From sequence record NC_073318.1: a stretch of DNA of 44,240 bases, one strand, 5' to 3'. This document shows, one piece after another, positions 13,647 to 41,226 of the stretch (its first letter is position 1; the number at the start of each line of letters is the position of its first letter). The notes beneath the pieces were generated by a model. The model searched no databases, was not told where the DNA came from, and saw only the letters and a list, made by a program, of their open reading frames with translations. The DNA is from Escherichia phage NTEC3. The translations under genes and the position numbers were made by a program.

Positions 13647-13690
13647 TCGACGTAATCAGGGTACTGGTCTTTGTATTTCTGTAGCTCGGC
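13601..13690. repeat. direct repeat copy 1 (about 90 bp) from tandem gene duplication
   Basis: About 90% identical to 13870-13959 (shared CACATGTGTAACTGACC...CAGTTCGCGCACTCGACGTAATC core). Confidence 0.7.
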
Positions 13691-13915: not shown

Positions 13916-13959
13916 TCGACGTAATCCGGGAACTGGTCCTTGTATTTCTGTAACTCGGC
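13870..13959. repeat. direct repeat copy 2
   Basis: Matches 13601-13690; encodes the conserved C-termini of paralogs A and B. Confidence 0.7.
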
Positions 13960-14145
13960 TTCAACTTCCAACAGCTTTAGGTCAAGATTCTGGTAGTCCT
14001 CAAACTTAACCCACTTCCCGTGGCGGTCAATGAAATGGTTGTCGGACCCATACTTAGAATATCTCTGTACCATGTTATTTCTCCTGTTTTCCAAGTCGCT
14101 TAGGTGAGCAGATAGCGCGTACCTCTGAATCGTTGGGCTTGTCAC
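13870..14145 (-). CDS. tandem paralog family member A (acidic, C-terminal CxxC)
   Basis: Contains MVQRY...ELQKYKDQFPDYVECANCGSVTHVGGVE. Confidence 0.5.
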   Translation of the reverse strand: MTSPTIQRYALSAHLSDLENRRNNMVQRYSKYGSDNHFIDRHGKWVKFEDYQNLDLKLLEVEAELQKYKDQFPDYVECANCGSVTHVGGVE

Positions 14146-16713: not shown

Positions 16714-16738
16714 TCCTCTGTCTCGTTCCGATAAGTGA

Positions 16739-16767
16739 ATAGTATCCTATTATATTGGGGTGTGCAA
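16739..16767 (-). promoter_or_regulatory. class A promoter for minus-strand early block
   Basis: Reverse complement reads TTGCAC-N17-TACTAT (31/32 match to consensus); first early ORF about 25 nt downstream. Confidence 0.5.
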
Positions 16768-17016
16768 GAGGATAGTTACGTTGCCGTTGTGATTCTTCGG
16801 GGATGGTTGTGCCATTATTCTTATTACTTGGTAACTAAAGGGCAGGCCTTAAGCCTGCCCAATAATCGTTACATTTTTACGGTTGCGAATCTACGGCACT
16901 TTAAGAAAATCAGATACTTAAGAGATATGCTGTCGATGAGAATAGAGCTTGCCCAGGGCAACCGGAGATACTTAGGAAGGAAAGTTACAACAATTCTCGT
17001 GTTCAGTAAGCCTGCT

Positions 17017-17048
17017 GCTTAACCCTTTGCTTAACGCACGGGTTAAGC
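17017..17048. repeat. 9-bp inverted repeat in divergent control region
   Basis: GCTTAACCC ... GGGTTAAGC separated by 14 nt that re-contain GCTTAAC. Confidence 0.45.
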
Positions 17049-17617: not shown

Positions 17618-19900
17618 GTGAACGCCGAGGCCAAATTACTTGCTGAAGGAATATACAACATGTCCGATGTAATTTTATCCTACTCGTGGTCCCGTCGCAA
17701 CGCGCGGGCAGAGAAAAAGGATATAAACGTCAGAACCACGCATGCGGCAACACTGGACGACCTGAAAGAGTTAATCCAGCCGCTCGATGCTGTTCGTGAC
17801 GGGATTAACCCTAAGACCGCGCCCGGCTATATCACAGCCGCGTGCGACTCTACGCACAGCACCGTAAAAGACCCGGAAACTGGGGACTTTAAGCAAGCAC
17901 GTAAAGGCTTCTTCTATCGCTGTGACGCGTCTGTAAGCAAATCGTCGCTCGCCTATCTGGACTTTGACAGTGCAACGCCGGAGGAGTATCAGGAAGCGGT
18001 GCGCCTGGTTAAGCGCAGCCGCCAGGCTATGTGCCTTTACACTACGGCATCCCATACTGATGAGGTCCCCCGCTTCCGCGTCGTCATGCCGCTAGGTCGC
18101 CCGGTCGAAGGTGGTGACATCATCCGCGTTCGTCATGGATTGCTGGAGCACTTCTTTAAAGGCATGGGCGCGGACCGCAGTGGTTTTACTCTGTCGCAGC
18201 CGATGTACCTGCCACCGGTCGGCTCTACCGTTATCTGGTCACGACGCAACGACCTGATTGACCCGGACGAGTTGCTGGAAGGTATCCCTGCCGTTGACGT
18301 TAGCAGCGCATCGGATTACCAGATACCTGAAGAACTGCGCACCGCGTTTACTGATGCGTTCGAGGCACTGGCGTTTGAGTACGGCGGCATCATGACGCCC
18401 CGCGGCCTTAAGATGCCAGCTACACCAGAACACGCAGAAAACTACAGCGACCCGACGCCTCGCCCGGACGACTTCCTGTTGTGTTTTCCGCGCGAGGGAT
18501 ATGAAGCGCCGAACGTAACCATGATTCACGACACCGACATTACGGCAACTGAAGGCATGTCTCCGAAAGAGGTGTGGAAGTATGCGTGCGACGCGACCGG
18601 GCTGCCGTTCAGTGAAGTGGCAGAGGCCATAGGTTGGGGTGCGCGTGAATCCGTTTCATGCAGCCTCGACGACCTGGAAGACGAGGATGACTCAGAGGAG
18701 TACGAGCTACCGGAACCTGTAAAGGCTGATTTCGTCGTAGAAGGGTATATGCCGTCGGATTGTATATGGGATATCGTCGGGGAGTCGGGCACATACAAAT
18801 CGTTCTATACTCTGGGGATGATGTACCTTAGCGCCGCCGGATACCGGTTCGCCGGGGCGGACACCCAGCGTTGCCATCACTTCTATATCGACGGTGAGGG
18901 GGGTGCTGCTACACGTACACGTATTGACGCACTCGCGGCTAAATACGGCGAGGAAGGTAAAGATTATGTACACGTCATCGATATGGGCGAAGTCGGCAAA
19001 CTGAAGAGCCTGATTAAGTTAATGCGCGAAACTGCCGGCGACGAGCCAATCGGCATGGTCGCGTTCGACACCCTAAACCAGACGCTGGCCCTGACGATTG
19101 ATAAGTTCGACGAGAACAGTTCATCAACGGCAATCGGCATGGGTAAAGTCATCGCCATCCTGAAAGAAGTGCGTGACGCGACTAAAGCCGCAGTAGGCGT
19201 TGTCCACCATACGCCGAAGGGTGGAAAGAAAGCACGCGGCAGTGGGGCGCTGTATGCGGGTGTTGACGTGGAACTGACAATCGAACGTGCAACCGACCGT
19301 CAAATAAACGTATACCACTCGAAATTTAAGCACGGTCCTCAACAGAAAACGGTTGGCATGGTGCTGGAGTCTGTGCAGTTCCGCGAAGCTCCGCCGCCGA
19401 AAGAGTACCGTGCGGTTGAGTTCCTGGGGGGCACAGAAGAATACGGCACAATCGTAAACCTGGACCTTCCTGAACCACACAAGGCGCTTGTGTTGATGCC
19501 GTGGGGTTTCGAGCCGTTCAAAACTGACGAGGAGAAAGAGCGGGAAGAAGGGTTGACGAAAGAAGGTAAGCAAAAAGTAAAGGAAGAAGTTAAACGCGGC
19601 AGGGATGAAGTAAGGAAGGAGTCAATACTTTCGGCACTGGAAGACCTGCAACAGTCAGATGACACAGGTCGCGGTTTTACTCAGCAGCAGATAGTGGCTC
19701 GTTCCGGTGACTTCTCTGTGACTAACACCCATCTTGATAAAATGTTGAAAGATGGAGAACTAATGCTTGGTTGCGATGCTAACGGCGAAGTAGTACCGAG
19801 AACATATCGTATACCCGAAAGAATAGGGGATAGATTAAGGCCGAAGACACTATACGAACCAAATGAGATGCTGGTGGTGACAGAGGAGGATTTGGAATAG
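17618..19900 (+). CDS. DNA primase / helicase (RepA/DnaB-like ATPase domain)
   Basis: 760 aa; Walker A-like GESGTYKS, Walker B MVAFDTLN, VVHHTPKGG block typical of RepA-like ATPases; C-terminal VTEEDLE. Confidence 0.7.
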   Translation: MNAEAKLLAEGIYNMSDVILSYSWSRRNARAEKKDINVRTTHAATLDDLKELIQPLDAVRDGINPKTAPGYITAACDSTHSTVKDPETGDFKQARKGFFYRCDASVSKSSLAYLDFDSATPEEYQEAVRLVKRSRQAMCLYTTASHTDEVPRFRVVMPLGRPVEGGDIIRVRHGLLEHFFKGMGADRSGFTLSQPMYLPPVGSTVIWSRRNDLIDPDELLEGIPAVDVSSASDYQIPEELRTAFTDAFEALAFEYGGIMTPRGLKMPATPEHAENYSDPTPRPDDFLLCFPREGYEAPNVTMIHDTDITATEGMSPKEVWKYACDATGLPFSEVAEAIGWGARESVSCSLDDLEDEDDSEEYELPEPVKADFVVEGYMPSDCIWDIVGESGTYKSFYTLGMMYLSAAGYRFAGADTQRCHHFYIDGEGGAATRTRIDALAAKYGEEGKDYVHVIDMGEVGKLKSLIKLMRETAGDEPIGMVAFDTLNQTLALTIDKFDENSSSTAIGMGKVIAILKEVRDATKAAVGVVHHTPKGGKKARGSGALYAGVDVELTIERATDRQINVYHSKFKHGPQQKTVGMVLESVQFREAPPPKEYRAVEFLGGTEEYGTIVNLDLPEPHKALVLMPWGFEPFKTDEEKEREEGLTKEGKQKVKEEVKRGRDEVRKESILSALEDLQQSDDTGRGFTQQQIVARSGDFSVTNTHLDKMLKDGELMLGCDANGEVVPRTYRIPERIGDRLRPKTLYEPNEMLVVTEEDLE

Positions 19901-19927
19901 GTAAAAAGAAAGGGGCTTTAAGCCCCT
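19900..19927 (-). terminator. terminator hairpin at 3' end of XRE gene
   Basis: AGGGGCT-TTA-AGCCCCT stem-loop; minus strand followed by TTCTTTTTAC. Confidence 0.45.
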
Positions 19928-20133
19928 TCACCTAACGCCAGCCACTTGGCGTCTACTTCCAGAACTTCCGCCAGTTTGAACAGCGTTGCCGGGCGGACGT
20001 CCTGAGTTACTCCAAGTGCCAGTTGGTTAATCGCGCCCTGGGAAACGCCGGTCAGGGCCGCCAAACGGCGCTGGGAGATGCCGAGTTCTTTGCGGCGTTG
20101 TTCTACACGGATGCCTAGTTCAGATGGTTGCAT
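19918..20133 (-). CDS. XRE-family (Cro/CI-type) HTH transcriptional regulator
   Basis: 71 aa; LGISQRRLAALTGVSQGAINQLALG is a canonical XRE HTH; RBS AAGGAG; divergent from plus-strand promoter. Confidence 0.75.
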   Translation of the reverse strand: MQPSELGIRVEQRRKELGISQRRLAALTGVSQGAINQLALGVTQDVRPATLFKLAEVLEVDAKWLALGEGA

Positions 20134-20197: not shown

Positions 20198-20226
20198 TTG
20201 ACATGTGAATAGTTCGCTATTATAGT
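20198..20226 (+). promoter_or_regulatory. class B sigma70 promoter, TTGACA-N17-TATAGT, operator in spacer
   Basis: -35 20198-20203, -10 20221-20226; spacer carries AATAGTTCGCTATT palindrome; drives gene at 20258. Confidence 0.6.
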
Positions 20227-20257
20227 TAGCCCATACCAAACGAGAGGAGAGAAACAA

Positions 20258-22312: not shown

Positions 22313-22512
22313 TTCAAGTAAATGAAATGCCCACAGATAAAGATTTTGTGATGATATGGCGCTGGGGCGGTTATATCCATTCGGAATCGTTTACGTTCCT
22401 GAACGGCACGATGGTGCGATACAACCATGTGGAGGATGAATTCGAACCCGTTGATATGAATGATTTCGAGAACATAGTCCGTATTGCGAAATTTTATTTG
22501 ACACCTGAATAG
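22309..22512 (+). CDS. hypothetical protein
   Basis: Likely start ATG 22309 (MIQVNEM) after GAGGAGG; 67 aa. Confidence 0.45.
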   Translation: MIQVNEMPTDKDFVMIWRWGGYIHSESFTFLNGTMVRYNHVEDEFEPVDMNDFENIVRIAKFYLTPE

Positions 22513-22526
22513 TTAGCTATTATAGT
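22498..22526 (+). promoter_or_regulatory. class B promoter upstream of DUF2815-like gene
   Basis: TTGACA 22498-22503, 17 nt spacer with AATAGTTAGCTAT, TATAGT 22521-22526. Confidence 0.55.
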
Positions 22527-22585
22527 TCTAATCACTGACCGGGCAGCTTCCCGGAGTAAACGAAACTTAAAAGCGAGAAATTAAG

Positions 22586-23212
22586 ATGGGTATTAAACTG
22601 AATCTGCGTAAAGTAAACACTGCTTGGGTTAACGTATTTGAACGTGAAAAAGACCGTGAAAACGATGATGGCTCAATCACTAAAGGCCAGTACAGCGCGA
22701 CTATCATCCTGCCGTCTGACCATGCTCAAATCGATGCACTCTACGACACCGTTTACGCTGTAGTTGAAGAAGCGTTAGGCGCAGCCGCTGCCGAGAAATG
22801 GATGAAGTCCAACTACGGTGAAGGTAAGCACATGGATAAATGCGCGATTAAAGACATTGCCGAGCGCGACAATCCGTTTGAAGACTTCCCGGAAGGCTTC
22901 TACTTCAAAGCGAAGGCACAGAAACAGCCGCTGATTGTAACCTCTAAAAAAGGTGAGACTCAGGTAGAGCAGGACTTCAACGTAGACGGCGAACAGATTG
23001 AAGGTGAACAGGTTTACAGCGGATGCTTAGCTAACGTAAGCGTTGAAATCTGGTTCAGCCAGAAATACAAAGTCCTCGGCGTTAACCTGCTGGCGATTAA
23101 ATACGTTGGCGAAGGCAAAGCGTTCGGCGGTTCTAAAGTCGCTGCGAGCGTCAATGACCTGGAAGACGACGAAGAAGATGAAGCACCGCGCCGCGAACGT
23201 CGCCGCCGCTAA
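22586..23212 (+). CDS. DUF2815-like protein (ssDNA-binding candidate)
   Basis: 208 aa; sits between DUF2800-like nuclease and DNA polymerase as in the known DUF2800-DUF2815-PolA phage module; acidic/basic C-terminus. Confidence 0.55.
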   Translation: MGIKLNLRKVNTAWVNVFEREKDRENDDGSITKGQYSATIILPSDHAQIDALYDTVYAVVEEALGAAAAEKWMKSNYGEGKHMDKCAIKDIAERDNPFEDFPEGFYFKAKAQKQPLIVTSKKGETQVEQDFNVDGEQIEGEQVYSGCLANVSVEIWFSQKYKVLGVNLLAIKYVGEGKAFGGSKVAASVNDLEDDEEDEAPRRERRRR

Positions 23213-23231: not shown

Positions 23232-23256
23232 AAGGCCCTTCATTGGGCCTTTTTAC
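23232..23256 (+). terminator. terminator / attenuator between DUF2815-like gene and DNA polymerase
   Basis: AAGGCCC-TTCATT-GGGCCTT hairpin followed by TTTTT, 16 nt before polymerase ATG. Confidence 0.45.
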
Positions 23257-23271
23257 TAGGGGTCAAAAATA

Positions 23272-25452
23272 ATGAGTTACCTGTTCTTAGACTTTGAAAC
23301 ATTCTCAGAAGCCGATTTGAAGAAAGTCGGTTCTTACGCTTACGCCGAACACCCGTCAACCGAAGTGCTTATCTGTACATATGCTTTTGACGACGAACCT
23401 GTGCGGGTATGGGATTGCACCGACGGCAGCGACATGCCGGGGGATTTACACCGCGCACTGCGCCGCCTTGTTAAGCCCAACAGCCGCATCAAGATGGTGT
23501 GGCACAACGGTGGACTTTTCGACCGCCTAATCATGAAACACTGCTGGGACTTTGATATTCCGGTAAGTAACACCATTGATACTATGATTTGGGCGTTCCG
23601 TCACGCGCTGCCGGGTTCTCTTGATGCGCTGTGCGAAGTGCTGGGCGTGTCTGCAGACAACGCGAAAGATAAACGCGGCAAGGCTCTGATTAAGCGTTTT
23701 TCTAAACCTACGCCGAAGAACTACAAAATCCGCCGCTACACCGCCGATACGCACCCGGACGAGTGGGCGCTGTTCATCAAGTACGCCGTTAGCGACATCA
23801 CTGCGATGCGTGAAGTCTTCCATAAGCTGCCGCGTTGGGGTAACTCCGAGTTCGAAGACCGTGTACTGGAACTGGACCAGTTGATTAACGACCGTGGGTT
23901 TAAGGTTGATGTGACGCTGGCGGAAGCCGCGATTGAAGCCGTGGAAAAACACAAGGCCAAGCTACAGGAAGAAGCACAGCGCAAATACGGCGGCTCGCTT
24001 ACTGGTAAAGACTTCCTGCCGATTCTGCGTGAACTGGCCCCCGCACACCGCATACACAACGCACAGAAGTCGACGCTGAATGACCTGCTGGCCGATGATG
24101 ATTTACCTGACGACGCCCGCACGATTATCGAAATGCGCCTCGGGGCCGCGTCAACAGCGTCCACGAAATATAACCCGCTGCTGTTAGGCCGCTCGTCGGA
24201 CGACCGACGCCGCGGTTGTATCCAGTACGGTGGGGCAAAGCGTACGTTACGGTTCGCGGGTAAAGGCTTCCAGCCACAGAACCTGGCGCGCGGGTACTAT
24301 CACGATGATGAACTGGATAAAGGTATTTCAGCGTTACTTAAGGGCCGCGCGCATCGCCGTTTCGATGTCGCTAAGCTAACGGCATCGACGGTGCGTAGCT
24401 GCATTATCCCGGAAGCCGGAAAAAAGTTTGTCGTCGCCGATTACTCTAACGTTGAAGGTCGGGGGCTTGCGTGGCTGGCAGGCGAAGAAACCGCGCTAGA
24501 TACGTTCCGCGCCGGGCTGGACATTTACTGTGTAACCGCGGGTAAGATGTTCGGCATGGAGCCGGATTACATTAAGAAGGAACGCAAAGACTTGCGCCAG
24601 ATTGGTAAAGCCTGCGAGCTTGGCCTCGGCTACGCTGGTGGTGTTGGCGCTTTCGTTCAGTTTGCTAAGAACCTCGGACTTGACCTTGTTGATATGTCAA
24701 AAACAATGGACGGTACTTTCCCGGACCACATCTGGGCGGCTACTGCACGCGGCTATGAATGGGCACGTATTCAGGAAGCCAAGCGACCGCCGCGACCCGG
24801 GGAGAAGGATGACCGACCATCGTATATTCTTGATAAGAAAGTGTGGCGTACCTGTGACGCTATCAAGCGTATGTGGCGAGAGTCACACCCTGAAACAGTA
24901 GCTTTCTGGCGAGATATTGAAGACGCAGCTATGGCCGCTATCCGCAATCCAGGTAAAGAGTTCACCGCGGGGCCTAGGGGGGTTAAGTTTTCGCGCAACG
25001 TAGAGACAGACAACAACGGCAACAAAGTCGCCGGCTGGTGGTTGCGCATGACGTTGCCGTCGGGTCGCGTTATGTCTTATCCGGGCGTCGGGTTAAGCGT
25101 GTCGAAAGAAACAGACGAAGATGGAAAAGTGTCTACTAACGTACGCATCAAGTACCAGGGGGAGAACCAGTTAACCCGTCAGTGGGGCTTCCAGTACACC
25201 TACTCTGGTAAACTCGTGGAAAACTGTACTCAGGCGCTGTGCCGTGATTTGCTGGCCAATGCACTGCTGAACGTTGAAGCAAACGGCTATCCTATTGTGC
25301 TTCACGTACACGACGAAATTATCTGCGAAACACCAGATACGCCAGAATACAATGTTGCAGAGCTTGAGCGGTTGATGTGCGAATTACCGGAGTGGGCGGA
25401 GGGGTTCCCTCTTGTAGCGGAAGGTGCGGAGATGAAGCGATATGCCAAGTAA
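23272..25452 (+). CDS. family A DNA polymerase with 3'-5' exonuclease domain
   Basis: 726 aa; N-terminal DFETFS exonuclease motif; C-terminal VHDEIICE polymerase motif C. Confidence 0.85.
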   Translation: MSYLFLDFETFSEADLKKVGSYAYAEHPSTEVLICTYAFDDEPVRVWDCTDGSDMPGDLHRALRRLVKPNSRIKMVWHNGGLFDRLIMKHCWDFDIPVSNTIDTMIWAFRHALPGSLDALCEVLGVSADNAKDKRGKALIKRFSKPTPKNYKIRRYTADTHPDEWALFIKYAVSDITAMREVFHKLPRWGNSEFEDRVLELDQLINDRGFKVDVTLAEAAIEAVEKHKAKLQEEAQRKYGGSLTGKDFLPILRELAPAHRIHNAQKSTLNDLLADDDLPDDARTIIEMRLGAASTASTKYNPLLLGRSSDDRRRGCIQYGGAKRTLRFAGKGFQPQNLARGYYHDDELDKGISALLKGRAHRRFDVAKLTASTVRSCIIPEAGKKFVVADYSNVEGRGLAWLAGEETALDTFRAGLDIYCVTAGKMFGMEPDYIKKERKDLRQIGKACELGLGYAGGVGAFVQFAKNLGLDLVDMSKTMDGTFPDHIWAATARGYEWARIQEAKRPPRPGEKDDRPSYILDKKVWRTCDAIKRMWRESHPETVAFWRDIEDAAMAAIRNPGKEFTAGPRGVKFSRNVETDNNGNKVAGWWLRMTLPSGRVMSYPGVGLSVSKETDEDGKVSTNVRIKYQGENQLTRQWGFQYTYSGKLVENCTQALCRDLLANALLNVEANGYPIVLHVHDEIICETPDTPEYNVAELERLMCELPEWAEGFPLVAEGAEMKRYAK

Positions 25453-25809: not shown

Positions 25810-26089
25810 TAAAGAGGGACGCATCCAGAAATACGCAAAAGAGCGATTCGAGGCCATTGGTGGCCTCGTTCGTAAGCTGTCTTATGAGGGGCGCTCCGGC
25901 GCCCCCGACCTGCTGGTAATTCTCCCCGGCGGCATCGTCTGGTTCGTCGAGGTTAAGAAAGACGAAAACACGAAGCCAGACCCGCACCAGATACGAGAGC
26001 ACGAGCGGATGCGTAAACGCGGTGCAAATGTTTTTGTCGTCGGTTCGTTTAAACAGGTTGACGACCTAATAGCGAACTATTATAGTTAG
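25805..26089 (+). CDS. VRR-NUC domain nuclease
   Basis: 94 aa; GAPDLLVI ... VEVKK fits the PD-(D/E)xK VRR-NUC signature. Confidence 0.65.
   Translation: MTKEGRIQKYAKERFEAIGGLVRKLSYEGRSGAPDLLVILPGGIVWFVEVKKDENTKPDPHQIREHERMRKRGANVFVVGSFKQVDDLIANYYS
26058..26086 (+). promoter_or_regulatory. class B promoter upstream of 63 aa / methyltransferase / SNF2 genes
   Basis: TTGACG 26058-26063, spacer with AATAGCGAACTAT, TATAGT 26081-26086; overlaps 3' end of VRR-NUC gene. Confidence 0.55.
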
Positions 26090-27102: not shown

Positions 27103-28519
27103 GTTTCAAAGGCGCGAATACCAGAAGCTAATGACTTCGTTCATGTTGCGGCACCATCGCTGTAATATTTGGGCGAGCATGGGCGCCGGGAAGACTGGCA
27201 GCGTACTGTGGACATTAAACCGACTGTTCCGCAACGGGCAGCTTACAGAAGAGGACCGCGTGTTAATCCTCGCCCCGTTGCGCGTTGCGTCCGGCACATG
27301 GCCGGCGGAACAAACTAAGTGGAATTTCCCATGTCTGCGTGTCGTAGACGCGACCGGTTCAGAGAAGCGCCGCATCGCGGCGCTGGAGTCAGATGCTAAC
27401 GTGGTGTGCACGAACTACGAAGTTATCGAGTGGCTTATTGACTACTACGGCAAAGACGACTGGCCTTTTACCGTTATCGTTGCCGATGAAAGCACGAAAC
27501 TGAAGTCATTCCGCAGCCGTTCAGGCGGCAGCAAGAGGGCAAAGGCGCTTAGTAAAGTGGCATTTGGCAAAGTTAAGCGTTTCATTAACCTGACTGGCAC
27601 GCCGTCACCAAACGGCCTCAAGGACTTGTGGGGGCAGAACTGGTTTATCGACGCAGGCGAGCGCCTGGGGTCATCGTACACAGCATTCACCGACCGCTGG
27701 TTTAACTCGGTACAGAAAGGGAAATCTGCGATGGCCCGTGAATACCACGCACGCCCGGGTGCGGATAATGAAATTCACCAGAAGATGAAGGACATTAGTC
27801 TCACGATTGACGCCGCCGAGTGGTTCGGGTGTGAAGCGCCGATTATTGTGCCGGTTGAAATCGACCTGCCGAAGAAAGCACGTCAGGCGTACATCGATAT
27901 GGAGGAGAAGTTATTCGCGGAACTGGAAAGCGGAGAAGTTGAAGCGGCTAACGCTGCGGCGAAGACGTCGAAGTGCCTACAGATTGCCTCCGGTGCCGTG
28001 TATGTATCGGGGCCAGATGGCGAATCAACCAAAGAATGGGAGAAAGTGCACGACACGAAACTTGATGCGCTGGAGTCAATTGTGGAGGAGTTGCAGGGCG
28101 CGCCGTTGCTGGTCGCCTATCAGTTCAAGCACGAACTTGAGCGCATCCTTAAGCGATTCCCACAGGCGCAGGCGTTTTCCAAAGGCGCGAAGGGTAATAA
28201 GCAGATGGAAGCGTGGAACCGCGGCGAAATAGAAATCTTATGCGTACACCCTGCGTCAGCCGGGCATGGTTTGAATTTACAGGACGGCGGCCATCATCTG
28301 GCGTTTATTTCACAAGGCTGGAATCTTGAGCACTATTTGCAGGTTGTCGAGCGCATCGGCCCTGTTCGCCAGAAACAAGCTGGGCACGAGCGCCCGGTGT
28401 TCCTTTATCACATAGTCGCTAAAGACACGCTGGACGAGGTTGTTGCCGCGCGTACCGACGAGAAGAAATCGGTACAGGAAGAGTTGCTTAACTACATGAA
28501 GAGACGAGGTAAGAAATGA
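27095..28519 (+). CDS. SNF2-family helicase / ATPase
   Basis: Walker A ASMGAGKTG, DExx box VADEST, LTGTPSPN motif III. Confidence 0.75.
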   Translation: MSKFQRREYQKLMTSFMLRHHRCNIWASMGAGKTGSVLWTLNRLFRNGQLTEEDRVLILAPLRVASGTWPAEQTKWNFPCLRVVDATGSEKRRIAALESDANVVCTNYEVIEWLIDYYGKDDWPFTVIVADESTKLKSFRSRSGGSKRAKALSKVAFGKVKRFINLTGTPSPNGLKDLWGQNWFIDAGERLGSSYTAFTDRWFNSVQKGKSAMAREYHARPGADNEIHQKMKDISLTIDAAEWFGCEAPIIVPVEIDLPKKARQAYIDMEEKLFAELESGEVEAANAAAKTSKCLQIASGAVYVSGPDGESTKEWEKVHDTKLDALESIVEELQGAPLLVAYQFKHELERILKRFPQAQAFSKGAKGNKQMEAWNRGEIEILCVHPASAGHGLNLQDGGHHLAFISQGWNLEHYLQVVERIGPVRQKQAGHERPVFLYHIVAKDTLDEVVAARTDEKKSVQEELLNYMKRRGKK

Positions 28520-28653
28520 ACATCATAGCCCCGATTCCAGCATTGCAAAAACGTATCAAGGAACTCGAAGAGGAGGTTCTACGCCTACGGCAACAGAGAG
28601 ATGCCGCTAATGCGCAACTGGCGTTTGTGCTGGAGAAGTTATCAGAAGAGTAG
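28516..28653 (+). CDS. small coiled-coil peptide (45 aa)
   Basis: Hand-found; ATGA overlap with SNF2 stop; followed by terminator. Confidence 0.3.
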   Translation: MNIIAPIPALQKRIKELEEEVLRLRQQRDAANAQLAFVLEKLSEE

Positions 28654-28654: not shown

Positions 28655-28684
28655 GAAAAGGCCCCGTTTGGGGCCTTAGTTTTA
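28655..28684. terminator. bidirectional terminator between replication module and tailspike gene
   Basis: AAGGCCCC-GTTT-GGGGCCTT hairpin; T-runs on both strands. Confidence 0.6.
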
Positions 28685-30862
28685 ATCGCAAAGTAAGGAT
28701 TTGGTGAAGTTTGGCACCCACGGCATCCTGTCAGAAATTACTAAATCTCTGATTAATATGCCGCAGTCTGCAGATGCGCCGCTATAGGTAACTTGGATAT
28801 TAAAACTAGTTGCCTGGCTTCTGGCAAGACTGATGGCTGCAAAATAATCGTTACCGGTCTGTGGTGATATAGTCACATATGAGGTTCCTAGTCCTATTTT
28901 TACGACAGTATTTGTCCCATAACTGGTAAATTGATGACGGAAAAGAACATAAACGCGGTCGTGATTGTTGAAAACCGCGTTTGTAGTTGTGATTGGTATT
29001 GTGAATGTTTTTGTGGTAGCGTCTCGTGCAAAGGTAACCTGTAGATTATCACCAGAAGTAGCCATAGTTACGCCTGATTCCTGCGGGTAAGCAGAACCGT
29101 TATTGGCGTTAAGCGCAGACCTTTTAAAAAGAACAAATGGTTTTGAAGACATTTGTTCACTCTCCCAGGTACTTGTCCCACTATCGTCCCAAAAAAGACC
29201 CTTAAAATAATACATTACACTGGATGACACGGTCCAACCGGCTAAATCAAACATGCTCCCGGTTGCATCTGTTAAGTCACAGTTAATAAATCTATTAAAT
29301 CTGTTGGTGGAGTTCTGGTATACGCAACAAGGTGTCGTTGTTCCTGTTGTGATATTAGGGTCCGCAAATGATACTGAGTTGAATGTTACGTATTCGCACC
29401 CATCCATGATAATGCCGCCGCGAGTCACAGCGCCGGAGCGTTGGATATTAGTAAATGTACTGTTACGCATATTCGCAAGAAGGGCAAAAGTACAGTCCGC
29501 TGTTAATGACCCATCGGCATTGTGGGCTTCTCCGTGGAAATCTGTAAAATGAATATCGCGGAAGCCCTTGACATCAGATGCACTATTTCCGGCTAGGCTT
29601 TCTGAATAGATGGCGTATGTTGCGCGACTCGCCCATCCTACACGGTCGAATGTACATGCAAAAATCTGTCGGTCTACATGGCAGGAGAACCTGATACTAG
29701 GGTTGCCAGATGTCGCCCATGAAGGGTTGTTGTCGATTGTGCTGAAAAACATACAATCCCGGAATGACAGGCCTGTTAAATTTCCACGGTCGATATCTGT
29801 ATTAGTCCTGAGCACAAGCCCACCGCCTAATGTCCATACGTGGCTTAATTCCAGGTTCTCCACGTCTCCAGATGTTGCGTTTTTAGGGTGGATAACAACA
29901 GCAGCATCGAAGGTTCCAGATACAGATATCCGACGGACGACGGAATTACGGCAGCCGCCAATGTGCAGCCCAACCACATTCGGCTGGGAACCATCTGCGT
30001 TTATCTGGAAACCTTCAATATAAAACGGGTCTTGTCCTGTGTTATCAATAGCGACTATAGCGGGTCCTGTGGAACCGGCAATTACGTTAGTGCCAGTAAA
30101 GTCAGGGAGAGCCATAAAGTATGTTTCTGGGTAGACCCCAACAATACGCGTCCTTTTTGGAAGGTTAAGAGTAGAATCAAGCCAAAAGAACCCAGCCGGG
30201 AAACGTAAAGTAACCCCAGTACCGATATTCTCGCTAGTTGCTGCCGCTAAAGCCTGCTCAATGTATGTCCTTACGCTTCCTAGTGCTTTTGACGCGTTAA
30301 CATCGTTTAGAGCTGCGATCACGTTAGCTGGAAGGTAGTCAAGTATGTTTATCTCTGTTTTTGCTGCTTGAGTCTTGCGGTAGTCAAACTCTGCCTGTAC
30401 GGTCCTGCCGGATGTTGTCCCAACTAACCCTGCGCCAGTGCTTAGGGCCAAATCACGGCGCAATGCAGCTTCACTAACGGCAACCCATGCGGTCTGGCCT
30501 ACTCCGCCCGTAGACGCCGGGGTTGAAGATGCCGGGATGGTTTTTGGCAGAGCACCCTTCCATGCATAATAGTTGCCGTCGCCTGATGGCCCTGGCCACA
30601 ACACCGCCAGGTCAGCGTCGTTAACGCCCAAAGTCCCACCTGTTTCGAATGTGAAAGACGCAGGTCTGAACCCGGCGTCGCGCAACACGGCGGGGAGTGT
30701 CTTCTGCGTCTGCCCTGTAACCTGATTTGTTGCGTAATCAATATCAGCACCAGTAGCAACACCACCGGATTTACCAGTAATAACCTCAGCTTCAAAAATC
30801 TGGTGCTTCTTGGCGGTCTGTAAATCCGCCAGGCTTAAAACGTCACCGCATACGCTTGACAT
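28682..30862 (-). CDS. tailspike / tail fibre protein (receptor binding, beta-helix candidate)
   Basis: 726 aa, last gene of tail module, Gly/Asn/Thr/Ser-rich repetitive C-terminal part; fold not verified. Confidence 0.55.
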   Translation of the reverse strand: MSSVCGDVLSLADLQTAKKHQIFEAEVITGKSGGVATGADIDYATNQVTGQTQKTLPAVLRDAGFRPASFTFETGGTLGVNDADLAVLWPGPSGDGNYYAWKGALPKTIPASSTPASTGGVGQTAWVAVSEAALRRDLALSTGAGLVGTTSGRTVQAEFDYRKTQAAKTEINILDYLPANVIAALNDVNASKALGSVRTYIEQALAAATSENIGTGVTLRFPAGFFWLDSTLNLPKRTRIVGVYPETYFMALPDFTGTNVIAGSTGPAIVAIDNTGQDPFYIEGFQINADGSQPNVVGLHIGGCRNSVVRRISVSGTFDAAVVIHPKNATSGDVENLELSHVWTLGGGLVLRTNTDIDRGNLTGLSFRDCMFFSTIDNNPSWATSGNPSIRFSCHVDRQIFACTFDRVGWASRATYAIYSESLAGNSASDVKGFRDIHFTDFHGEAHNADGSLTADCTFALLANMRNSTFTNIQRSGAVTRGGIIMDGCEYVTFNSVSFADPNITTGTTTPCCVYQNSTNRFNRFINCDLTDATGSMFDLAGWTVSSSVMYYFKGLFWDDSGTSTWESEQMSSKPFVLFKRSALNANNGSAYPQESGVTMATSGDNLQVTFARDATTKTFTIPITTTNAVFNNHDRVYVLFRHQFTSYGTNTVVKIGLGTSYVTISPQTGNDYFAAISLARSQATSFNIQVTYSGASADCGILIRDLVISDRMPWVPNFTKSLLCD

Positions 30863-35714: not shown

Positions 35715-38041
35715 TATTTAAACCCCGGCGCATTTCTTGTGGCCTTGCGGGCCTTGCTAATCTTACTGTTACTGTTCTGCAAAGAGGCAGCCACTTGCTC
35801 CTCGATGATGATACGCAAACGGCCTTCATCATCTTGCTCAGTGGATACGTTGCCGATTTGAGAACTCGTGTTGTTTACGATAGTAACATTAGACGGTCCG
35901 GAAGAAGACCCGTTTTGCCCCATAATTTCTTTCATCTGCTGTGCGGTGCGTACACGTGACGCACCAGCGGGCATGATAACTTCTGGTTTACCGCGTTCGG
36001 CGATGGTTGAAGCCTGCCCCGCGGATAACTGTCCGCCCTGTTCACGTGCGGACCTGATAGCGGAAATCTGCGCCATACCCGCCCCAACGGCAGCAGCGGC
36101 AGCTACAGGAGCCAGGAACGGGCCAACTACAGGGATAGCCGCTGTTGACTTATACGCCTCAATAGCCGCGGTGTACGTGGCTATAGTGGCCTGCACGATA
36201 GCGAATGCCTTGTACGCGCCAGAAGCCTCGCCCAAAGCCGAACCGATGTTTGAGGCCATGTTACCGAAGGCCGTTGCCGTTGCGTCGGCACGCTTCGTGG
36301 CGTACTGCTCATTGATGGCGTTAAGCGCCGCCTGGTACTGCTTCTCACTAATAAGCCCCTGCTCACGGTACTTATCCGCTACCTTCAGTTTCTGCTGTTC
36401 CTGGATGTCGAGAAGCTCAAGCTCAGTAGCGTTCTGACCCATAATCTGTGCCATGAAGTCCTCGCCTTTCTGCTGCTTTTCCTGCTGCTCTTTTCTTTTC
36501 TTATCCAGTTCTTCCTGTCTGGCCTGCTCGGCTGTGAGCATAATTTGAGTTTTGGCGTTTTCATACTGCTGCTGGCTTATCGTTCCGGCGCGGTTGAACT
36601 CCTCCAGTTTCGCCAGTTTCTGTTCTTCCGCAGCGGTAATGCGCGAAATCTCATCTCCGGTTGTGCGGTCGACAGTAGCCAGGAAATCTTCCGCCGCTTT
36701 TTTCTGTCGTTCAGCCGCCGTTTCTTCGCGTTTGGCTTGTGCCGCCAGCCGTTTCTCGTTCGATTTAGCCTCGCGGTCTGCCTTCTCTTTCTCGGTCTTG
36801 TCAATGCGGGCGATGTCTTGCTGAGCTTCCGTGTCGCGAGCGGCATTATACGCGGCTATCTGTTCTTTGGTGACAGCTTCACGTTTAGCGAACGCCTGTT
36901 TATCGAGTTCAGCTTGCGCCCGGATGCGCTCACGGTCGCTTAAGATGGCAATTTGCTGGTTTTTGACGATGGCGTCGTTCTGTTCCTGGAATCTCTGCGT
37001 GGTTGAGTTGACGTTACGGCCGAGATTCTTTTGGGCCTCCGCCGCCGCGTTTGCCGACTTCTCCGCGTTCTCCAGTGCCGTGGCGTTCTTGTTGGCATTG
37101 TCGGTCAGGCGGATAAGCTCCGGGTTCAGCTGTTTTGTGTTACCCAGCCAGTCGGTAAACACATCGGCGATGCGGCGGGCATTCTCCGCGGTTGGTTCTT
37201 TGTTAAACGCACTCTGCGCCGCTATCATCTCCAGCGCCTGGTCACGGTTAACCCCGAACTTACTGCTAAGCTCTGCGATATTCTGCGCCAGCATGTTGAC
37301 GCCTACGATGTTACCCTCGTAAGTGCCGCCGAGTTTTTCTAATGTGTCGCCTACATCTGCACCCTTAGACACCAGCGCATCATACTGGCTAATAGCTGAT
37401 GCTGTGGAGGCTTTCCATGTTTCCCATGATTCCGCGTCCTCACGAACAGCTTTAGCTGTTTGCTGTGCGATAAGGTCAGCGTTAGCCTTAGCCAAAGCGA
37501 GCTGAGTCTCCGCCGCTTCTCTGCTGATTTGGGTAAGCTGGATAAGGCCGTCTGTCAGTTCGAGGGAGCCAGATGCCGTTTGTTGGAAAGTATCTTTTAA
37601 CTGTTTCTGTGCGGCTTCGAGGTCTTTTGAACTGCCTTCTGCTTCGGTTAGCGATTTATACAGGACGCCACCAACAGCTGATGCAAGAGCAATTACAGCC
37701 CCAAGCACCGCACCACCGGGGCCGAAAGCACCCGCAAGCTGCGAACCTTGCTGTCCTATCGCGACGAATGCGGACGTACCGGATTGCAACTGGACAACCA
37801 TGTCCTGCACCTGGAAGCCTACCTGCCCAGCGGCATTACGGAACTTAGCGAAACCGTCAGAGGCGGCTTTAGACGTAGCGGAGTTTACTTTATTAACATC
37901 CGGAGTCAGCTTGTTTACTGCGGTATCCGCACGGTCTGCAGACGACGCCATAGCGTCAAGCTGTTTGGCAGCTACGTCAGCACCTTCTGTTTTTACTCTG
38001 GCAATTAGGGAAGCCGTATCAGCCATCTTCTCTGCCCTCAA
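35714..38041 (-). CDS. tape measure protein
   Basis: 775 aa; long Ala/Gln/Glu/Lys-rich coiled-coil centre, Gly/Ala hydrophobic stretch near C-terminus; follows G/GT pair. Confidence 0.75.
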   Translation of the reverse strand: MRAEKMADTASLIARVKTEGADVAAKQLDAMASSADRADTAVNKLTPDVNKVNSATSKAASDGFAKFRNAAGQVGFQVQDMVVQLQSGTSAFVAIGQQGSQLAGAFGPGGAVLGAVIALASAVGGVLYKSLTEAEGSSKDLEAAQKQLKDTFQQTASGSLELTDGLIQLTQISREAAETQLALAKANADLIAQQTAKAVREDAESWETWKASTASAISQYDALVSKGADVGDTLEKLGGTYEGNIVGVNMLAQNIAELSSKFGVNRDQALEMIAAQSAFNKEPTAENARRIADVFTDWLGNTKQLNPELIRLTDNANKNATALENAEKSANAAAEAQKNLGRNVNSTTQRFQEQNDAIVKNQQIAILSDRERIRAQAELDKQAFAKREAVTKEQIAAYNAARDTEAQQDIARIDKTEKEKADREAKSNEKRLAAQAKREETAAERQKKAAEDFLATVDRTTGDEISRITAAEEQKLAKLEEFNRAGTISQQQYENAKTQIMLTAEQARQEELDKKRKEQQEKQQKGEDFMAQIMGQNATELELLDIQEQQKLKVADKYREQGLISEKQYQAALNAINEQYATKRADATATAFGNMASNIGSALGEASGAYKAFAIVQATIATYTAAIEAYKSTAAIPVVGPFLAPVAAAAAVGAGMAQISAIRSAREQGGQLSAGQASTIAERGKPEVIMPAGASRVRTAQQMKEIMGQNGSSSGPSNVTIVNNTSSQIGNVSTEQDDEGRLRIIIEEQVAASLQNSNSKISKARKATRNAPGFK

Positions 38042-38291
38042 ATATTCCGTCTAAGCCCATGATAACCTCGGCTTCGAACAAACTTATGCCGTAACCGGCG
38101 ACATCACGAAACGCTACCAAATCTTGCCATTTGAGCGCATCGCGCGGGATTATAACGATAGTATCATCTGTTTCGCGCTGTAGGAATTTAATGGCACGGT
38201 ATTTCTCGAACACGTCGATAAGAGAAACGGGGCATTCCGGCCCCGTCGCTTCTTTCATCTGCGGTTCTTTAATCACGCCCATTGCAATCAA
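38019..38291 (-). CDS. tail assembly chaperone T segment (expressed as G-T fusion by -1 frameshift, candidate)
   Basis: Reading frame is open upstream to 38399 and is the -1 frame relative to the G ORF; overlaps tape measure start. Confidence 0.45.
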   Translation of the reverse strand: MIAMGVIKEPQMKEATGPECPVSLIDVFEKYRAIKFLQRETDDTIVIIPRDALKWQDLVAFRDVAGYGISLFEAEVIMGLDGIFEGREDG

Positions 38292-38904: not shown

Positions 38905-38933
38905 TTGCACACCCCAATATAATAGGGTACTAT
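38905..38933 (+). promoter_or_regulatory. class A promoter driving the tail-module accessory operon
   Basis: -35 TTGCAC 38905-38910, 17 nt spacer, -10 TACTAT 38928-38933; identical 32-mer to 4097-4128. Confidence 0.55.
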
Positions 38934-38961
38934 TCACCAGTAACTTACTGAGGGTATAATT

Positions 38962-39288
38962 ATGCGTAAATTAGTATTAGCTCTGGGGTTTATGTCTTTT
39001 GCTACTTTTGGAGCCCCGTGCGAACAGGTATTTAGTGAATCCGTTCTTATGACTTCTGGTGTGCTTGATAAAGCCGACCTTACTATTGTAAAGGCATTTA
39101 AAGACTCTACAGTTCGCGAGTGTGAGGCTGCCGTAGTGGTTGGTAAATCGGGCCTGCCTCCGCAAGCCGTAACATACTCGGTAATACGTTCTGTAGAGAA
39201 AAACGGAGACGCGTTTTACAGCCTACTGACAGCCACCCGCCTGCAAATGGTGATGACCGGGTGGGCGATAGGCGCGGAAAGTAAATAG
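38962..39288 (+). CDS. secreted small protein (signal peptide), accessory operon gene 1
   Basis: 108 aa; N-terminal MRKLVLALGFMSFATFGA signal peptide; GAGGG RBS; class A promoter 30 nt upstream. Confidence 0.55.
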   Translation: MRKLVLALGFMSFATFGAPCEQVFSESVLMTSGVLDKADLTIVKAFKDSTVRECEAAVVVGKSGLPPQAVTYSVIRSVEKNGDAFYSLLTATRLQMVMTGWAIGAESK

Positions 39289-39353
39289 TCGCCTTTATTT
39301 AAAGGAATGCACTGTGGTTAAATAGGACAAATCCTAAACACGAGGAAGTAAGC

Positions 39354-40484
39354 ATGGCCCGGAAGAAAATAACCGACGAACAGTTGCAGGAAGAATTGAA
39401 CGCCGGGATGAAGAATATCGATATCGCCCGTAAATACGGAATCTCAGACCGCGTTATTCGTATCCGTAAAGCGAAGCTGGCTAAGAAAGGTGTAGGCCAC
39501 GGGCGTGACGTTAGCCACCTTGTCCCAGACGGCTACAAGATTAAAGGGACGTCGTCCCTGGTGGACGAGTTCGGCAACACTAAGTTGCAATGGGTTAAGA
39601 CCGACGCTGATGCCGAACGTCAGGTTGAATTGATGAAAGCCGTAATAGAGGGCATGAAGTCAGAGATTACGCCCGTTGCGCCTGTTAAACCGGCACGAGC
39701 CAAACGTGACGATAAACTACTCAATCTTTACACGGTATCTGATTTCCATCTCGGTATGCTGGCATGGGCCGATGAGAGCGGCGACGACTGGGACATGAAG
39801 ATTGCAGAAGACCTGTTCTCTCGGTGGTTCGACGCGGCGTTTCAGAAAGCACCGGATGCAGGAACAGGAGTTATTAACCTGCTTGGCGACCTTGCACACT
39901 TCGATAGTCTGGACGCCGTTACCCCGGCAAGTGGTCATGTTCTCGATGCGGACACGCGCTACCAGAAACTGGTTCGCTACATGATTCGTATGGTCCGCCG
40001 TGTTGTCGATATGGCCCTTGTTAAGCATAAAAATGTTCGCTTGCTTATCGTACAAGGGAACCACGACGAAAGCGGAATGATTTGGTTAGCTGAGATGTTC
40101 AGTACGCTGTACGACAATGAGCCTCGTGTGTTCGTCGATACGTCGCCGGATGTTTACAAGATGGTGCAACACGGCAAAACGACGCTGTTCTTTACACACG
40201 GGCATAAATGCCGGTTTGAGGTGGTCGAACCCATTATGATAGCTAAGTTCAGAAAAGCATTTGGCGAAAGCGAGTACAGTTACGCACATGTCGGTCATCT
40301 CCACCATCAAAAGATTGTAGAAAGTAGGAATATGGTAGTGGAACAACATCGCACTCTCGCGGCGAAAGATGCATATGCTTCCCGCGGTGGGTGGATGTCT
40401 AAGAGGTCCGCTAATGTCATAACCTATAGTTCAGAGTTCGGGGAAGTAGGTAGGCTTTCGATCTCACCGGAGATGCTAAGATGA
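39354..40484 (+). CDS. HTH domain fused to calcineurin-like / SbcD-Mre11-like metallophosphoesterase
   Basis: N-terminal HTH (NIDIARKYGISDRVIRIRK); phosphoesterase motifs SDFHLG, GDLAHFD, QGNHDE, THGH, VGHLHH in canonical order. Confidence 0.65.
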   Translation: MARKKITDEQLQEELNAGMKNIDIARKYGISDRVIRIRKAKLAKKGVGHGRDVSHLVPDGYKIKGTSSLVDEFGNTKLQWVKTDADAERQVELMKAVIEGMKSEITPVAPVKPARAKRDDKLLNLYTVSDFHLGMLAWADESGDDWDMKIAEDLFSRWFDAAFQKAPDAGTGVINLLGDLAHFDSLDAVTPASGHVLDADTRYQKLVRYMIRMVRRVVDMALVKHKNVRLLIVQGNHDESGMIWLAEMFSTLYDNEPRVFVDTSPDVYKMVQHGKTTLFFTHGHKCRFEVVEPIMIAKFRKAFGESEYSYAHVGHLHHQKIVESRNMVVEQHRTLAAKDAYASRGGWMSKRSANVITYSSEFGEVGRLSISPEMLR

Positions 40485-40951
40485 AGTACCTTGATGTTTC
40501 AAAACAATTTAAATACTGCCCTGATACTGGGCAGGTTACCAGGATATCTACTGGTGCTGAGGTTGGTACGGTTGGTGTAAGAGGCTATCTGTGCTGCGGT
40601 ATGGGTGGCAAAACAGTGTATGTCCACCGCATAGCATGGTGTCTTTATAATAAATGTGACTTAGACAGGAAAACTCAAATAGACCACATAAACCATAACA
40701 GGCTAGACAATAGAATAGAAAATCTACGCGCCACCGACAATACAGGGAACAGTAAAAATAAAACTATGAGAAAGATAAATAAATCCGGGGCTACAGGTGT
40801 AAGTTTCCACAAAGCCGCGGGTAAGTGGCGCGCGTTTATAAAAGTTAACTACAAACAAGTGCATTTAGGGCTTTACGACGATTTTGATGTAGCGGTTGCC
40901 GCGCGTAAAGCCGCCGAGAGTAAATACGGTTTCCATGAAAACCATGAGTAG
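40481..40951 (+). CDS. HNH homing endonuclease with AP2-like domain (paralog of 14275-14748)
   Basis: IDHINHNRLDNRIENLRATDN HNH motif; GVSFHKAAGKWRAFIKVNYKQVHLGLYDD AP2-like segment; ATGA overlap with upstream gene. Confidence 0.75.
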   Translation: MKYLDVSKQFKYCPDTGQVTRISTGAEVGTVGVRGYLCCGMGGKTVYVHRIAWCLYNKCDLDRKTQIDHINHNRLDNRIENLRATDNTGNSKNKTMRKINKSGATGVSFHKAAGKWRAFIKVNYKQVHLGLYDDFDVAVAARKAAESKYGFHENHE

Positions 40952-40964
40952 GGGAGATTGATTT

Positions 40965-41195
40965 ATGACTTCAAAATACAACCGCACAATGACAAATACT
41001 CACGGCAGCACTATGACAGTAGACGTTTATGATGTGCTCCGCGCCTTCGATATACGCGACCCGGCGCTACAGCACGCATTGAAGAAGCTATTGTGCATGG
41101 GCTTGCGCGGACACAAGGACACCGGAACCGACTTAGCGGAAGCAATTGAAAGTCTGGAGAAGTTACGGGAATACCGAAGCAATATTGATGAGTAA
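40965..41195 (+). CDS. hypothetical protein, last gene of accessory operon
   Basis: 76 aa ORF, 14 nt after HNH gene, followed by terminator. Confidence 0.45.
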   Translation: MTSKYNRTMTNTHGSTMTVDVYDVLRAFDIRDPALQHALKKLLCMGLRGHKDTGTDLAEAIESLEKLREYRSNIDE

Positions 41196-41226
41196 GAAAA
41201 AGGCCCCGAAAGGGGCCTTAGTTTTA
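41196..41226. terminator. bidirectional terminator between accessory operon and major tail gene
   Basis: AAGGCCCC-GAAA-GGGGCCTT hairpin; plus strand followed by AGTTTTA, minus strand by TTTTTCTTA. Confidence 0.6.

Follow-up and report, generated by a model that had tools for sequence, protein, structure and literature searches.

Three near-identical GC-rich hairpins (A, B, and C) fill the spacers between convergent genes in Escherichia phage NTEC3 (NC_073318.1; genus Kagunavirus, subfamily Guernseyvirinae), whose 44,240-nt stretch is referred to here as the window. Judged from their sequence and placement, it is very likely that these hairpins terminate transcription. That they stop the host RNA polymerase in both directions as intrinsic (Rho-independent) terminators and are portable together with neighboring gene cassettes is the wider reading, which we consider probable; the course predicted as most likely for the host polymerase is termination in both directions with unequal strength. 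Hairpins of this type are a known and ordinary kind of element, already predicted in the published relative Kagunavirus phage fBC-Eco01.

The head, tail, and lysis genes of NTEC3 and its leftward early genes are encoded on the minus strand, and the replication genes occupy the plus strand at about 16.8-28.65 kb. Two short plus-strand cassettes (Table 1) break the minus-strand structural genes. The genome has four convergent gene junctions, and a hairpin is found at all of them; at three of the four it belongs to the exact family (A, B, and C). An earlier sequence-only reading had listed near-identical hairpins at 4362-4388, 28655-28684, and 41196-41226, several of them between convergent units, and both observations stand. 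The listed ranges contain the three hairpins and a few flanking bases, and the pattern AAGGCCCC-N(3-8)-GGGGCCTT has exactly three matches in the window and none in 100 dinucleotide-preserving shuffles. Each hairpin fills a stop-to-stop spacer of 28 to 29 nt, with the stem beginning 2 to 6 nt from both flanking stop codons; at B, the tailspike stop codon is the TTA of AGTTTTA (28682-28684). Beyond the stem, all copies carry AAAAGGCCC(C)...(G)GGGCCTTAGTT, and B and C have 40 nt in common at 83% identity. When strong hairpins were defined as perfect stems of at least 7 bp with at least five G-C pairs, 24 distinct ones were found, half of which (12/24) lie in the intergenic 6.3% of the window (binomial P = 5e-9).

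Table 1. Coordinates and predicted properties of hairpins, cassettes, and promoter- or operator-like elements in the NTEC3 window
Feature	Coordinates	Strand	Sequence or content	Position	U- or T-rich tract	Folding energy (kcal/mol)	Discriminant score (+ / -)
Hairpin A	4362-4382		AAGGCCCC-ATAAT-GGGGCCTT; alternative: 9-bp stem, loop TAA	29-nt spacer between cassette gene 4153-4356 (+, stop TGA 4354-4356) and Hoc-like head decoration gene 4386-4847 (-)	UUUUAUCAU (+) / UUAGUUUUC (-)	-15.3, both strands	+23.5 / +3.3
Hairpin B (flagged copy)	28658-28677		AAGGCCCC-GTTT-GGGGCCTT	28-nt spacer between last replication-block gene 28516-28653 (+) and tailspike gene 28682-30862 (-)	UUAGUUUUA / UUUUCUCUA	-15.0	+7.2 / +27.0
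Hairpin C	41200-41219		AAGGCCCC-GAAA-GGGGCCTT	28-nt spacer between last cassette gene 40965-41195 (+) and major tail protein gene 41224-42390 (-)	UUAGUUUUA / UUUUUCUUA	-15.8 (+), -14.9 (-)	+13.1 / +38.2
Hairpin D	23232-23251	+	AAGGCCC-TTCATT-GGGCCTT, flanks AACT/TTTT as in the family	between co-directional plus-strand genes 22586-23212 and 23272-25452 (DNA polymerase)			+14.1 / -18.0
Variant v1	19910-19928	-	AAGGGGCT-TTA-AGCCCCTT	fourth convergent junction, helicase-primase gene 17660-19900 (+) / repressor-like gene 19918-20133 (-)	T tract on minus strand only		-22.9 / +19.3
Variant v2	5934-5949	-	minus-strand reading AGCCCC-GAAA-GGGGCT	after portal gene 5960-7441	TTCTTATA		+15.2, minus strand only
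Variant v3	9323-9342	-	minus-strand reading AAGCCCTC-TACG-GAGGGCTT	end of leftward early gene block, upstream of terminase genes	TTCTGTAC		+9.7, minus strand only
Cassette A	4153-4356	+	single 67-aa gene, opposite strand to head genes	promoter-like element at start, hairpin A at end			
Cassette C	38962-41195	+	four genes, opposite strand to tail genes	promoter-like element at start, hairpin C at end			
32-nt element, first copy	4097-4128	+	TTGCACACCCCAATATAATAGGGTACTATTCA; TTGCAC-17 nt-TACTAT, dyad AATAG..CTATT	25 nt upstream of gene 4153-4356			
32-nt element, second perfect copy	38905-38936	+		25 nt upstream of cassette 38962-41195			
32-nt element, third copy	16736-16767	-	1 mismatch; overlaps another repeat family of the window	divergent region between leftward and rightward early blocks			

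The RNA of A, B, and C, read from either strand, folds into an 8-bp stem (8 to 9 bp across copies) of six G-C and two A-U pairs, closed by a loop of 3 to 5 nt (4 to 5 nt with the 8-bp stem), at energies of -14.9 to -15.8 kcal/mol. Counted from the G/C core, 6 to 7 U residues occur within 9 nt on both strands of all three. These are the features of intrinsic terminators: a GC stem of about 5 to 14 bp, a loop of 3 to 8 nt, a U-rich tract, and a position at the 3' end of a transcription unit. The layout is also that of a bidirectional terminator, with convergent genes on the two sides and an A tract before and a T tract after the stem. Terminator strength was scored with a d'Aubenton-Carafa-type discriminant, using present-day folding energies and counting terminal A-U pairs as part of the tract. 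Only A, B, and C scored positive on both strands, with weak values (+3.3, +7.2, and +13.1) on the strand where the U tract reads UUAGUUUU.

In the mechanism that we propose, a polymerase arriving from either side would transcribe the identical 8-bp stem (about -15 kcal/mol) and would then enter a stretch rich in U, which reads UUUU(U)CU or UUAGUUUU depending on the strand and at which the transcript would be released. Antisense transcription of the opposite-strand cassettes and of the replication block by polymerases leaving the late structural genes would be prevented, as would antisense transcription in the reverse direction. The predicted strength is asymmetric; the stronger direction would serve the cassette gene at A but, at B and C, the tailspike and tail genes, respectively. 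One report (PMC13500782, with reference to Ju et al. 2019 and Wang et al. 2023) describes bidirectional terminators between convergent genes as widespread in Escherichia coli. Furthermore, the GenBank record of fBC-Eco01 (OM272052) lists ARNold terminators on both strands at the portal gene/cassette junction and at the equivalents of sites A, C, and B, and the accompanying paper counts 23 predicted terminators (PMC9825357).

Several points weigh against bidirectional termination. Each hairpin has one strand on which the run of U is broken (UUAGUUUU), the weak-strand score of A is barely positive, and a simple consensus terminator scan picked up both strands of C but only one strand each of A and B. 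The ARNold features of fBC-Eco01 are themselves predictions and are mislabeled as "Rho-dependent" in the record. In the literature on Guernseyvirinae phages, no transcript 3'-end mapping was found, and the only transcriptome, an RNA sequencing paper on a Kagunavirus, reports gene-level timing and counts. If late termination at A and C were efficient, the downstream late genes would need promoters of their own; candidate late promoters were noted in reading the sequence, for example, TGC-TAGAAT at about 38890, beside a 32-nt element described below. Finally, the family resemblance among the hairpins is partly a matter of convergence, not descent.

Conservation was assessed in IMG/VR loci collected around homologues of the major tail protein (n = 80), the helicase (n = 71), and the head morphogenesis protein (n = 78). 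Directly after the stop codon of the tail gene, a perfect GC hairpin was present in 66 of 79 loci, compared with 0.6 after shuffling and 2.0 when windows were drawn at random from these loci. The exact AAGGCCCC/GGGGCCTT stem was found at site C in 47/79 loci, at site B in 47/71 loci, where it stands beside 30 unrelated tailspike 3' ends, and at site A in 42/74 loci; at sites A and B, it occurs in both Kagunavirus-like and Jerseyvirus-like genomes. As the three sites are conserved in relatives of both kinds, they are old and orthologous and not recent duplications within one genome. More distant loci carry other stems at the same position (AAAGGGCC, AAGGGGC, AAGCCCCC, and others), and 8 to 10 of 29 distinct hairpins show C-G to G-C swaps at stem pairs 3 and 4. 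The structure is kept while the sequence changes, which argues for function. The loops in relatives are mostly GAAA or TTTC, so that a stable GNRA tetraloop forms on one strand or the other.

A separate observation concerns the orientation of these loops. Among orthologous hairpins with identical stems and flanks (loci L005-L233), the loops are often exact reverse complements of each other: TTTC occurs 23 times and GAAA 14 times at site C, GTTT 17 times and AAAC 7 times at site B, and six different reverse-complement loop pairs occur at site A. This looks like repeated flipping of the hairpin, through template switching or exchange between inverted copies.

The two cassettes are bracketed by a hairpin at one end and, at the other, by a 32-nt element (Table 1) that resembles a promoter or operator, although its match to the -35 consensus is weak. 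The element upstream of cassette C was recovered with at most three mismatches at the same cassette start in 29 Kagunavirus-like loci, and it also starts the site A cassette in relatives. Its core is the reverse complement of the motif tgAATAGTa-ccTATTat-T reported for fBC-Eco01 (PMC9825357), in whose record "phage promoter" motifs are repeated at cassette starts. Cassette C encodes a 108-aa protein, a metallophosphoesterase or DNA-repair exonuclease-like protein, an HNH endonuclease, and a 76-aa protein, and the genes adjoining hairpin C vary among relatives.

The sequence-only reading had further proposed that the hairpins spread together with the morons that they terminate, and comparison of filled and empty sites bears this out in that the hairpin type tracks the presence of a cassette. 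At site A, the eight loci without a cassette lack the promoter element and carry (AA)GCCCC-gaaa-GGGGC(TT)-TTTAG, whereas among the loci with both a cassette and a hairpin in the expected window, the promoter element was present in 18/18 and a hairpin with a GGCCCC core in 17/18. Alignment of empty and filled sites shows a difference of one block, in which about 40 nt with the one-way hairpin are swapped for the AAGGCCCC hairpin, the gene, and the 32-nt element. The same contrast is seen at the portal gene, where sites without a cassette, in the window and in other genomes, have AGCCCC-gaaa-GGGGCT-TTCTTATA, and sites with a cassette mostly have AAGGCCCC...AGTTTTA or a close variant. At site C, two hairpins flank an extra anti-repressor-like gene with its own upstream region in eight relatives and in Salmonella phage SeF1; the single hairpin C of the window is flanked on the left as the first copy is and on the right (TTTTCTTACTC) as the second is. 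This two-copy/one-copy pattern is what would be expected if gene-promoter-hairpin units were gained and lost by exchange at the hairpin. Overall, we find it reasonably likely that the hairpins move together with the cassettes. The hairpins belong to a regulatory part conserved in Guernseyvirinae, whose extended form (stop codon, AACT, stem, loop, stem, and T-rich tail) lies at the outer limit of opposite-strand cassettes and of the tailspike gene; in Kagunavirus-like genomes, it is gained and lost with the cassettes and the 32-nt element.

The dyad TGAATAGTnnnCTATTATA within the 32-nt element has a wider distribution. It is common to all three copies of the element in Table 1 and to 20198-20227, 22498-22527, and 26058-26087, and the resulting family has two forms, the 32-nt perfect repeat and a version with TTGACA-17 nt-TATAGT in the replication block. 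The dyad points to an operator that the repressor-like product of gene 19918-20133 may bind, and promoter activity may be bidirectional. In fBC-Eco01 the motif bears the label "phage promoter", although the records examined contain no annotated gene for a phage RNA polymerase.

An alternative to termination as the main role is that the hairpins act chiefly as recombination linkers, in which the roughly 30-nt hairpin unit and the 32-nt element would offer short homology through which the phage's own annealing protein and exonuclease exchange cassettes and tailspike modules, a role also proposed for stem-loop elements of T4-type phages; termination would be secondary. We regard this as possible, and as the strongest of the competing explanations. 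It draws on the mosaic joints found at each site, where an identical hairpin is joined on its variable side to any of 20 to 30 unrelated sequence types and similarity is lost no more than about 8 nt from the stem. The duplicate hairpins around the inserted unit at site C fit the same explanation, as does a chimeric hairpin in locus L013, with AAAACT on one side and AGTTTT on the other. In T4-type phages, crossovers have been mapped within or next to the stem-loop of the promoter early stem-loop (PeSL) elements considered below. However, breakpoints at gene ends are also left by selection for intact genes after random illegitimate recombination, the homology could come from neighboring conserved genes, and the evidence for crossovers is comparative, none having been seen directly. 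Moreover, the A/T-tract anatomy and the convergent placement are explained by termination alone.

The linker explanation also draws on the presence of the element 3' of tailspike genes in other phage families. About 80 other records, all but a few of them from Kagunavirus, match the window at site B, and similarity mostly ends within a few bases of position 28684, at the tailspike stop. The 31-nt sequence GAGAAAAGGCCCCGTTTGGGGCCTTAGTTTTA, including loop and flanks, is 100% identical in Yersinia phage CAU_YEP3 (Ackermannviridae), and near-identical copies are present in E. coli phage PH4 (Ackermannviridae), in Uz-1, Bp4, EC1-UPM, and HK2 (Schitoviridae, Gamaleyavirus), and in Bas81. Phage Bas82 matches over 115 nt at 94% identity, 65 of which correspond to the 3' end of the window tailspike gene and lie outside any annotated gene in Bas82. 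In each case examined in other families, the element lies directly 3' of a tailspike or tail fiber gene in the same orientation. No close match was found between the tailspikes beside the element in other families and the sampled Kagunavirus tailspikes; the best matches reach about 35% identity (Bas82 over 492 aa and CAU_YEP3 over 93 aa), and recent cross-family homology of the tailspikes themselves was rejected on this ground. The element is far better conserved than the neighboring tailspike gene. This contrast fits repeated recombination at or next to the element, but random recombination followed by selection for intact genes would look no different. As a tentative extension, the unit of about 30 nt (stop codon, AACT, AAGGCCCC, loop, GGGGCCTT, and T-rich tail) may be a promiscuous boundary element of unrelated enterobacterial phage families (Guernseyvirinae, Ackermannviridae, Gamaleyavirus, and Bas82-like phages) that short-homology recombination uses as a 3' anchor in the exchange of receptor-binding tailspike modules and opposite-strand cassettes. 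A literature search for tailspike exchange linked to terminators returned nothing relevant.

Two further observations were made at tailspike junctions. A 54-nt stretch beginning with GGTAATGCAAACAGTAAAtTCTATATAAGAAAAGGCCCC and including the hairpin is common to CAU_YEP3 (1478-1531) and Uz-1 (1470-1532), 3' of their tailspike genes, which points to exchange at the junction between Ackermannviridae and Gamaleyavirus as well. The tailspike of fBC-Eco01 has been reported to be nearly identical to that of CBA120, and its transfer from an Ackermannviridae phage was considered as a further instance; this candidate was rejected, as no DNA match was obtained outside its own record and the hairpin stem is different.

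A second alternative holds that the hairpins are generic terminators that converged on one optimum (A tract, GGCCCC, tetraloop, GGGGCC, T tract), with neither common descent nor movement with cassettes. The bare AAGGCCCC-N4-GGGGCCTT stem is indeed present in at least 120 IMG/VR viral contig stretches, on contigs of all sizes, many of them unrelated. Among the matches listed, 68 of 122 copies are T-rich on both sides, and classic tetraloops dominate (mostly GAAA/TTTC and TTCG/CGAA). As the 8-bp stem is generic in unrelated viral contigs, its identity alone proves nothing, and the distant relatives with other stems at the same position likewise speak for convergence. In contrast, the extended motif AAGGCCCC-N4-GGGGCCTTAGTTTTA was found in only 79 stretches, all but one of them on contigs of Guernseyvirinae size or on shorter fragments and often in two to three copies per contig. 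A 36-nt query of INPHARED matched 522 records, overwhelmingly Salmonella and Escherichia phages of Guernseyvirinae, usually at two to four places per record. The extended form is almost confined to this subfamily. Convergence also leaves aside the AAAACT/AGTTTT flanks common to the sites, the agreement between hairpin type and cassette presence with its one-block difference, and the Ackermannviridae copy, which is identical over 31 nt in loop and flanks although loops vary freely within Kagunavirus. We therefore consider convergence as the sole explanation unlikely.

Descent and convergence both play a part in the shared sequence. The proposal of the sequence-only reading that it spread by duplication is accordingly retained in part: the extended form is nearly confined to the subfamily and tracks cassettes, but the bare stem is generic and the sites are old. 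Homology of the small genes upstream of B and C was ruled out, as their products (45 and 76 aa) have only LEKL near the C terminus in common. As these products are unrelated, the DNA shared between the two sites is spacer only, and any duplication excludes coding sequence.

Stable GC stems with GNRA-type loops at gene 3' ends also block 3' exonucleases. Hairpins of this description might therefore stabilize RNA 3' ends or serve as processing sites, protecting read-through or RNase-cleaved ends without release of polymerase. As the main function this is very unlikely, since a U-rich tract right after the stem and an A-rich tract before it are specific to intrinsic terminators; end protection is compatible with a terminator role and not exclusive of it. 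Least probable of all is an element acting at the DNA level, such as a protein site, a mobile repeat like the repetitive extragenic palindrome (REP) or the miniature inverted-repeat transposable element (MITE), or a replication or packaging cruciform: it would account for a perfect palindrome in several copies and for loop inversion between orthologues, which points to DNA hairpin or template-switch events, but copies occur at gene 3' ends only, no Rfam family matches, the compensatory stem changes in distant relatives fit a structural and not a sequence-specific constraint, and neither terminal inverted repeats nor target duplications are present beyond the hairpin. The REP- or MITE-like reading was rejected, as the hairpin has nothing around it that resembles a mobile element.

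Besides the three bidirectional candidates, the window contains hairpins that resemble them in part (Table 1). The sequence-only reading had described related variants at 19900-19927, 5934-5949, and 9312-9342 and had taken several of the hairpins, T-flanked on both strands, as likely bidirectional. T-rich flanks on both strands are confined to A, B, and C, for which scores and tracts support bidirectionality. The hairpins of the three variants do exist, but their stems differ and their T-rich tails are found on the minus strand only, and they are best read as ordinary one-way minus-strand terminators, not as bidirectional family members. Variant v2 is of the one-way type usual for genomes without a cassette at the portal gene, and the stem of v3 is that of the tailspike-junction hairpin in fBC-Eco01. 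Hairpin D, absent from the earlier description, is closer to the family than any of the three variants. It is probably a one-way terminator or attenuator and a plus-strand relative of the family. Two more strong GC hairpins with T-rich tails lie inside annotated reading frames, one at 16840-16860 (frame 16807-17022), near the divergent early promoter region, and one at 38226-38247, within the second tail assembly chaperone frame (38019-38291).

Compared with Escherichia phage vB_EcoS_SCS92 (ON548432.1; Guernseyvirinae, genus Kagunavirus), the window is of equal length and collinear, with no indels and 1,461 substitutions. These fall mostly at third codon positions and are patchy, ranging from 0 to 141 per kb. 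The deposited SCS92 record has a degenerate hairpin A (AAAGCCCC atttc GGGGCCTC), in contrast to the perfect one of the window.

Other features of the window were noted as well. A scan for tRNAs found none, and an Rfam scan gave no family at the gathering score and only chance-level matches (E < 1) around 3700-4200. The spanin gene (3391-3777) may be preceded on the minus strand by a structured RNA or leader (3802-4045). This candidate, itself without an Rfam match, has TTGACT-17 nt-TAAGCT, which is sigma-70-like and extended by TGn, and then about 170 nt that fold strongly, and ends at 3821-3802 with GCCCCGC-tttatg-GCGGGGC and TTTACTTATC. Its consensus fold, drawn from 32 distinct relatives, has 66 pairs, 6 of them with compensatory changes (e.g., GGGAC/GTCC to GGTGC/GCAC). 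Among the small leftward early genes, a 103-nt direct repeat (13597-13699 and 13866-13968; 89% identity; spacing, 269 nt) suggests tandem duplication of a small gene.

The NTEC3 hairpins resemble several known systems. Like the bidirectional terminators of E. coli, they combine a GC palindrome with A-rich and T-rich sides, lie between convergent genes, and present a hairpin and a U tract on both strands. The E. coli elements were mapped by SEnd-seq (cited through PMC13500782), whereas those of NTEC3 are predicted from sequence. They also differ in that the extended sequence of NTEC3 recurs at several junctions of one genome and across a subfamily.

Morons, which Juhala et al. and Hendrix et al. 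reportedly described in 2000, are autonomous promoter-gene-terminator units inserted between genes of phage operons. Cassettes A and C are moron-like in that they interrupt late genes, are bracketed by a promoter-like element and a predicted terminator hairpin, and are, in relatives, either present or cleanly lacking; this presence/absence feature is seen at site A, with 8 empty and 18 filled loci, and with the same contrast at the portal gene site. Classic morons belong to temperate lambdoid phages, carry unrelated regulatory sequences, and are often expressed from the prophage. In contrast, the NTEC3 cassettes are on the opposite strand to the genes that they interrupt, reside in a virulent-type siphovirus, and reuse one conserved promoter-like element and one terminator.

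For gene exchange, the closest precedent is offered by the PeSL elements of T4-type phages, in which a conserved early promoter and a GGGG...CCCC stem-loop terminator shuffle genes of unassigned function (Arbiol et al. 2010, PMC2839356; Comeau et al. 2014, PMC4122927). NTEC3 shares with them the conserved promoter-like element and stem-loop around variable genes (sites A and C, and the portal site in relatives), the gains, losses, and replacements bounded by the motifs, and the duplicate motifs that flank an inserted gene. However, the PeSL promoter (sigma-70 type) and stem-loop are adjacent and form one composite element between co-directional genes, whereas in NTEC3 the two elements lie at opposite cassette ends, with 233 nt between them at A and about 2.3 kb at C. 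The NTEC3 stem-loop is, in addition, predicted to be bidirectional, and the two systems belong to different phage families and have different motif sequences.

A further comparison is with the work on fBC-Eco01 (PMC9825357; OM272052), which concerns the same genus and the same junctions and includes two-strand terminator predictions and the reverse-complement repeat motif. It consists of predictions only, with no family-level or comparative analysis, and the tailspike junction of that phage has the stem AAGCCCTC. The present analysis adds the correction of the three variants to one-way hairpins, the identification of hairpin D as a fourth family member, and the recognition of the extended terminator as a conserved, portable boundary of cassettes and tailspike genes.

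As terminators, the hairpins are routine, of use in annotating transcription units and possibly as compact two-way parts for synthetic biology. For the biology of these phages, what stands out is that a single short regulatory element is retained as the tailspike ends and accessory cassettes next to it are exchanged. If the cross-family reading were true, the unit of about 30 nt would be a siphovirus counterpart, reaching across families, of the PeSL elements of T4. A role of the element in guiding recombination, if real, would help to account for the transfer of host-range modules from one phage family to another, and the element would then also provide a natural docking site for tailspike engineering in therapeutic Kagunavirus and Jerseyvirus phages.

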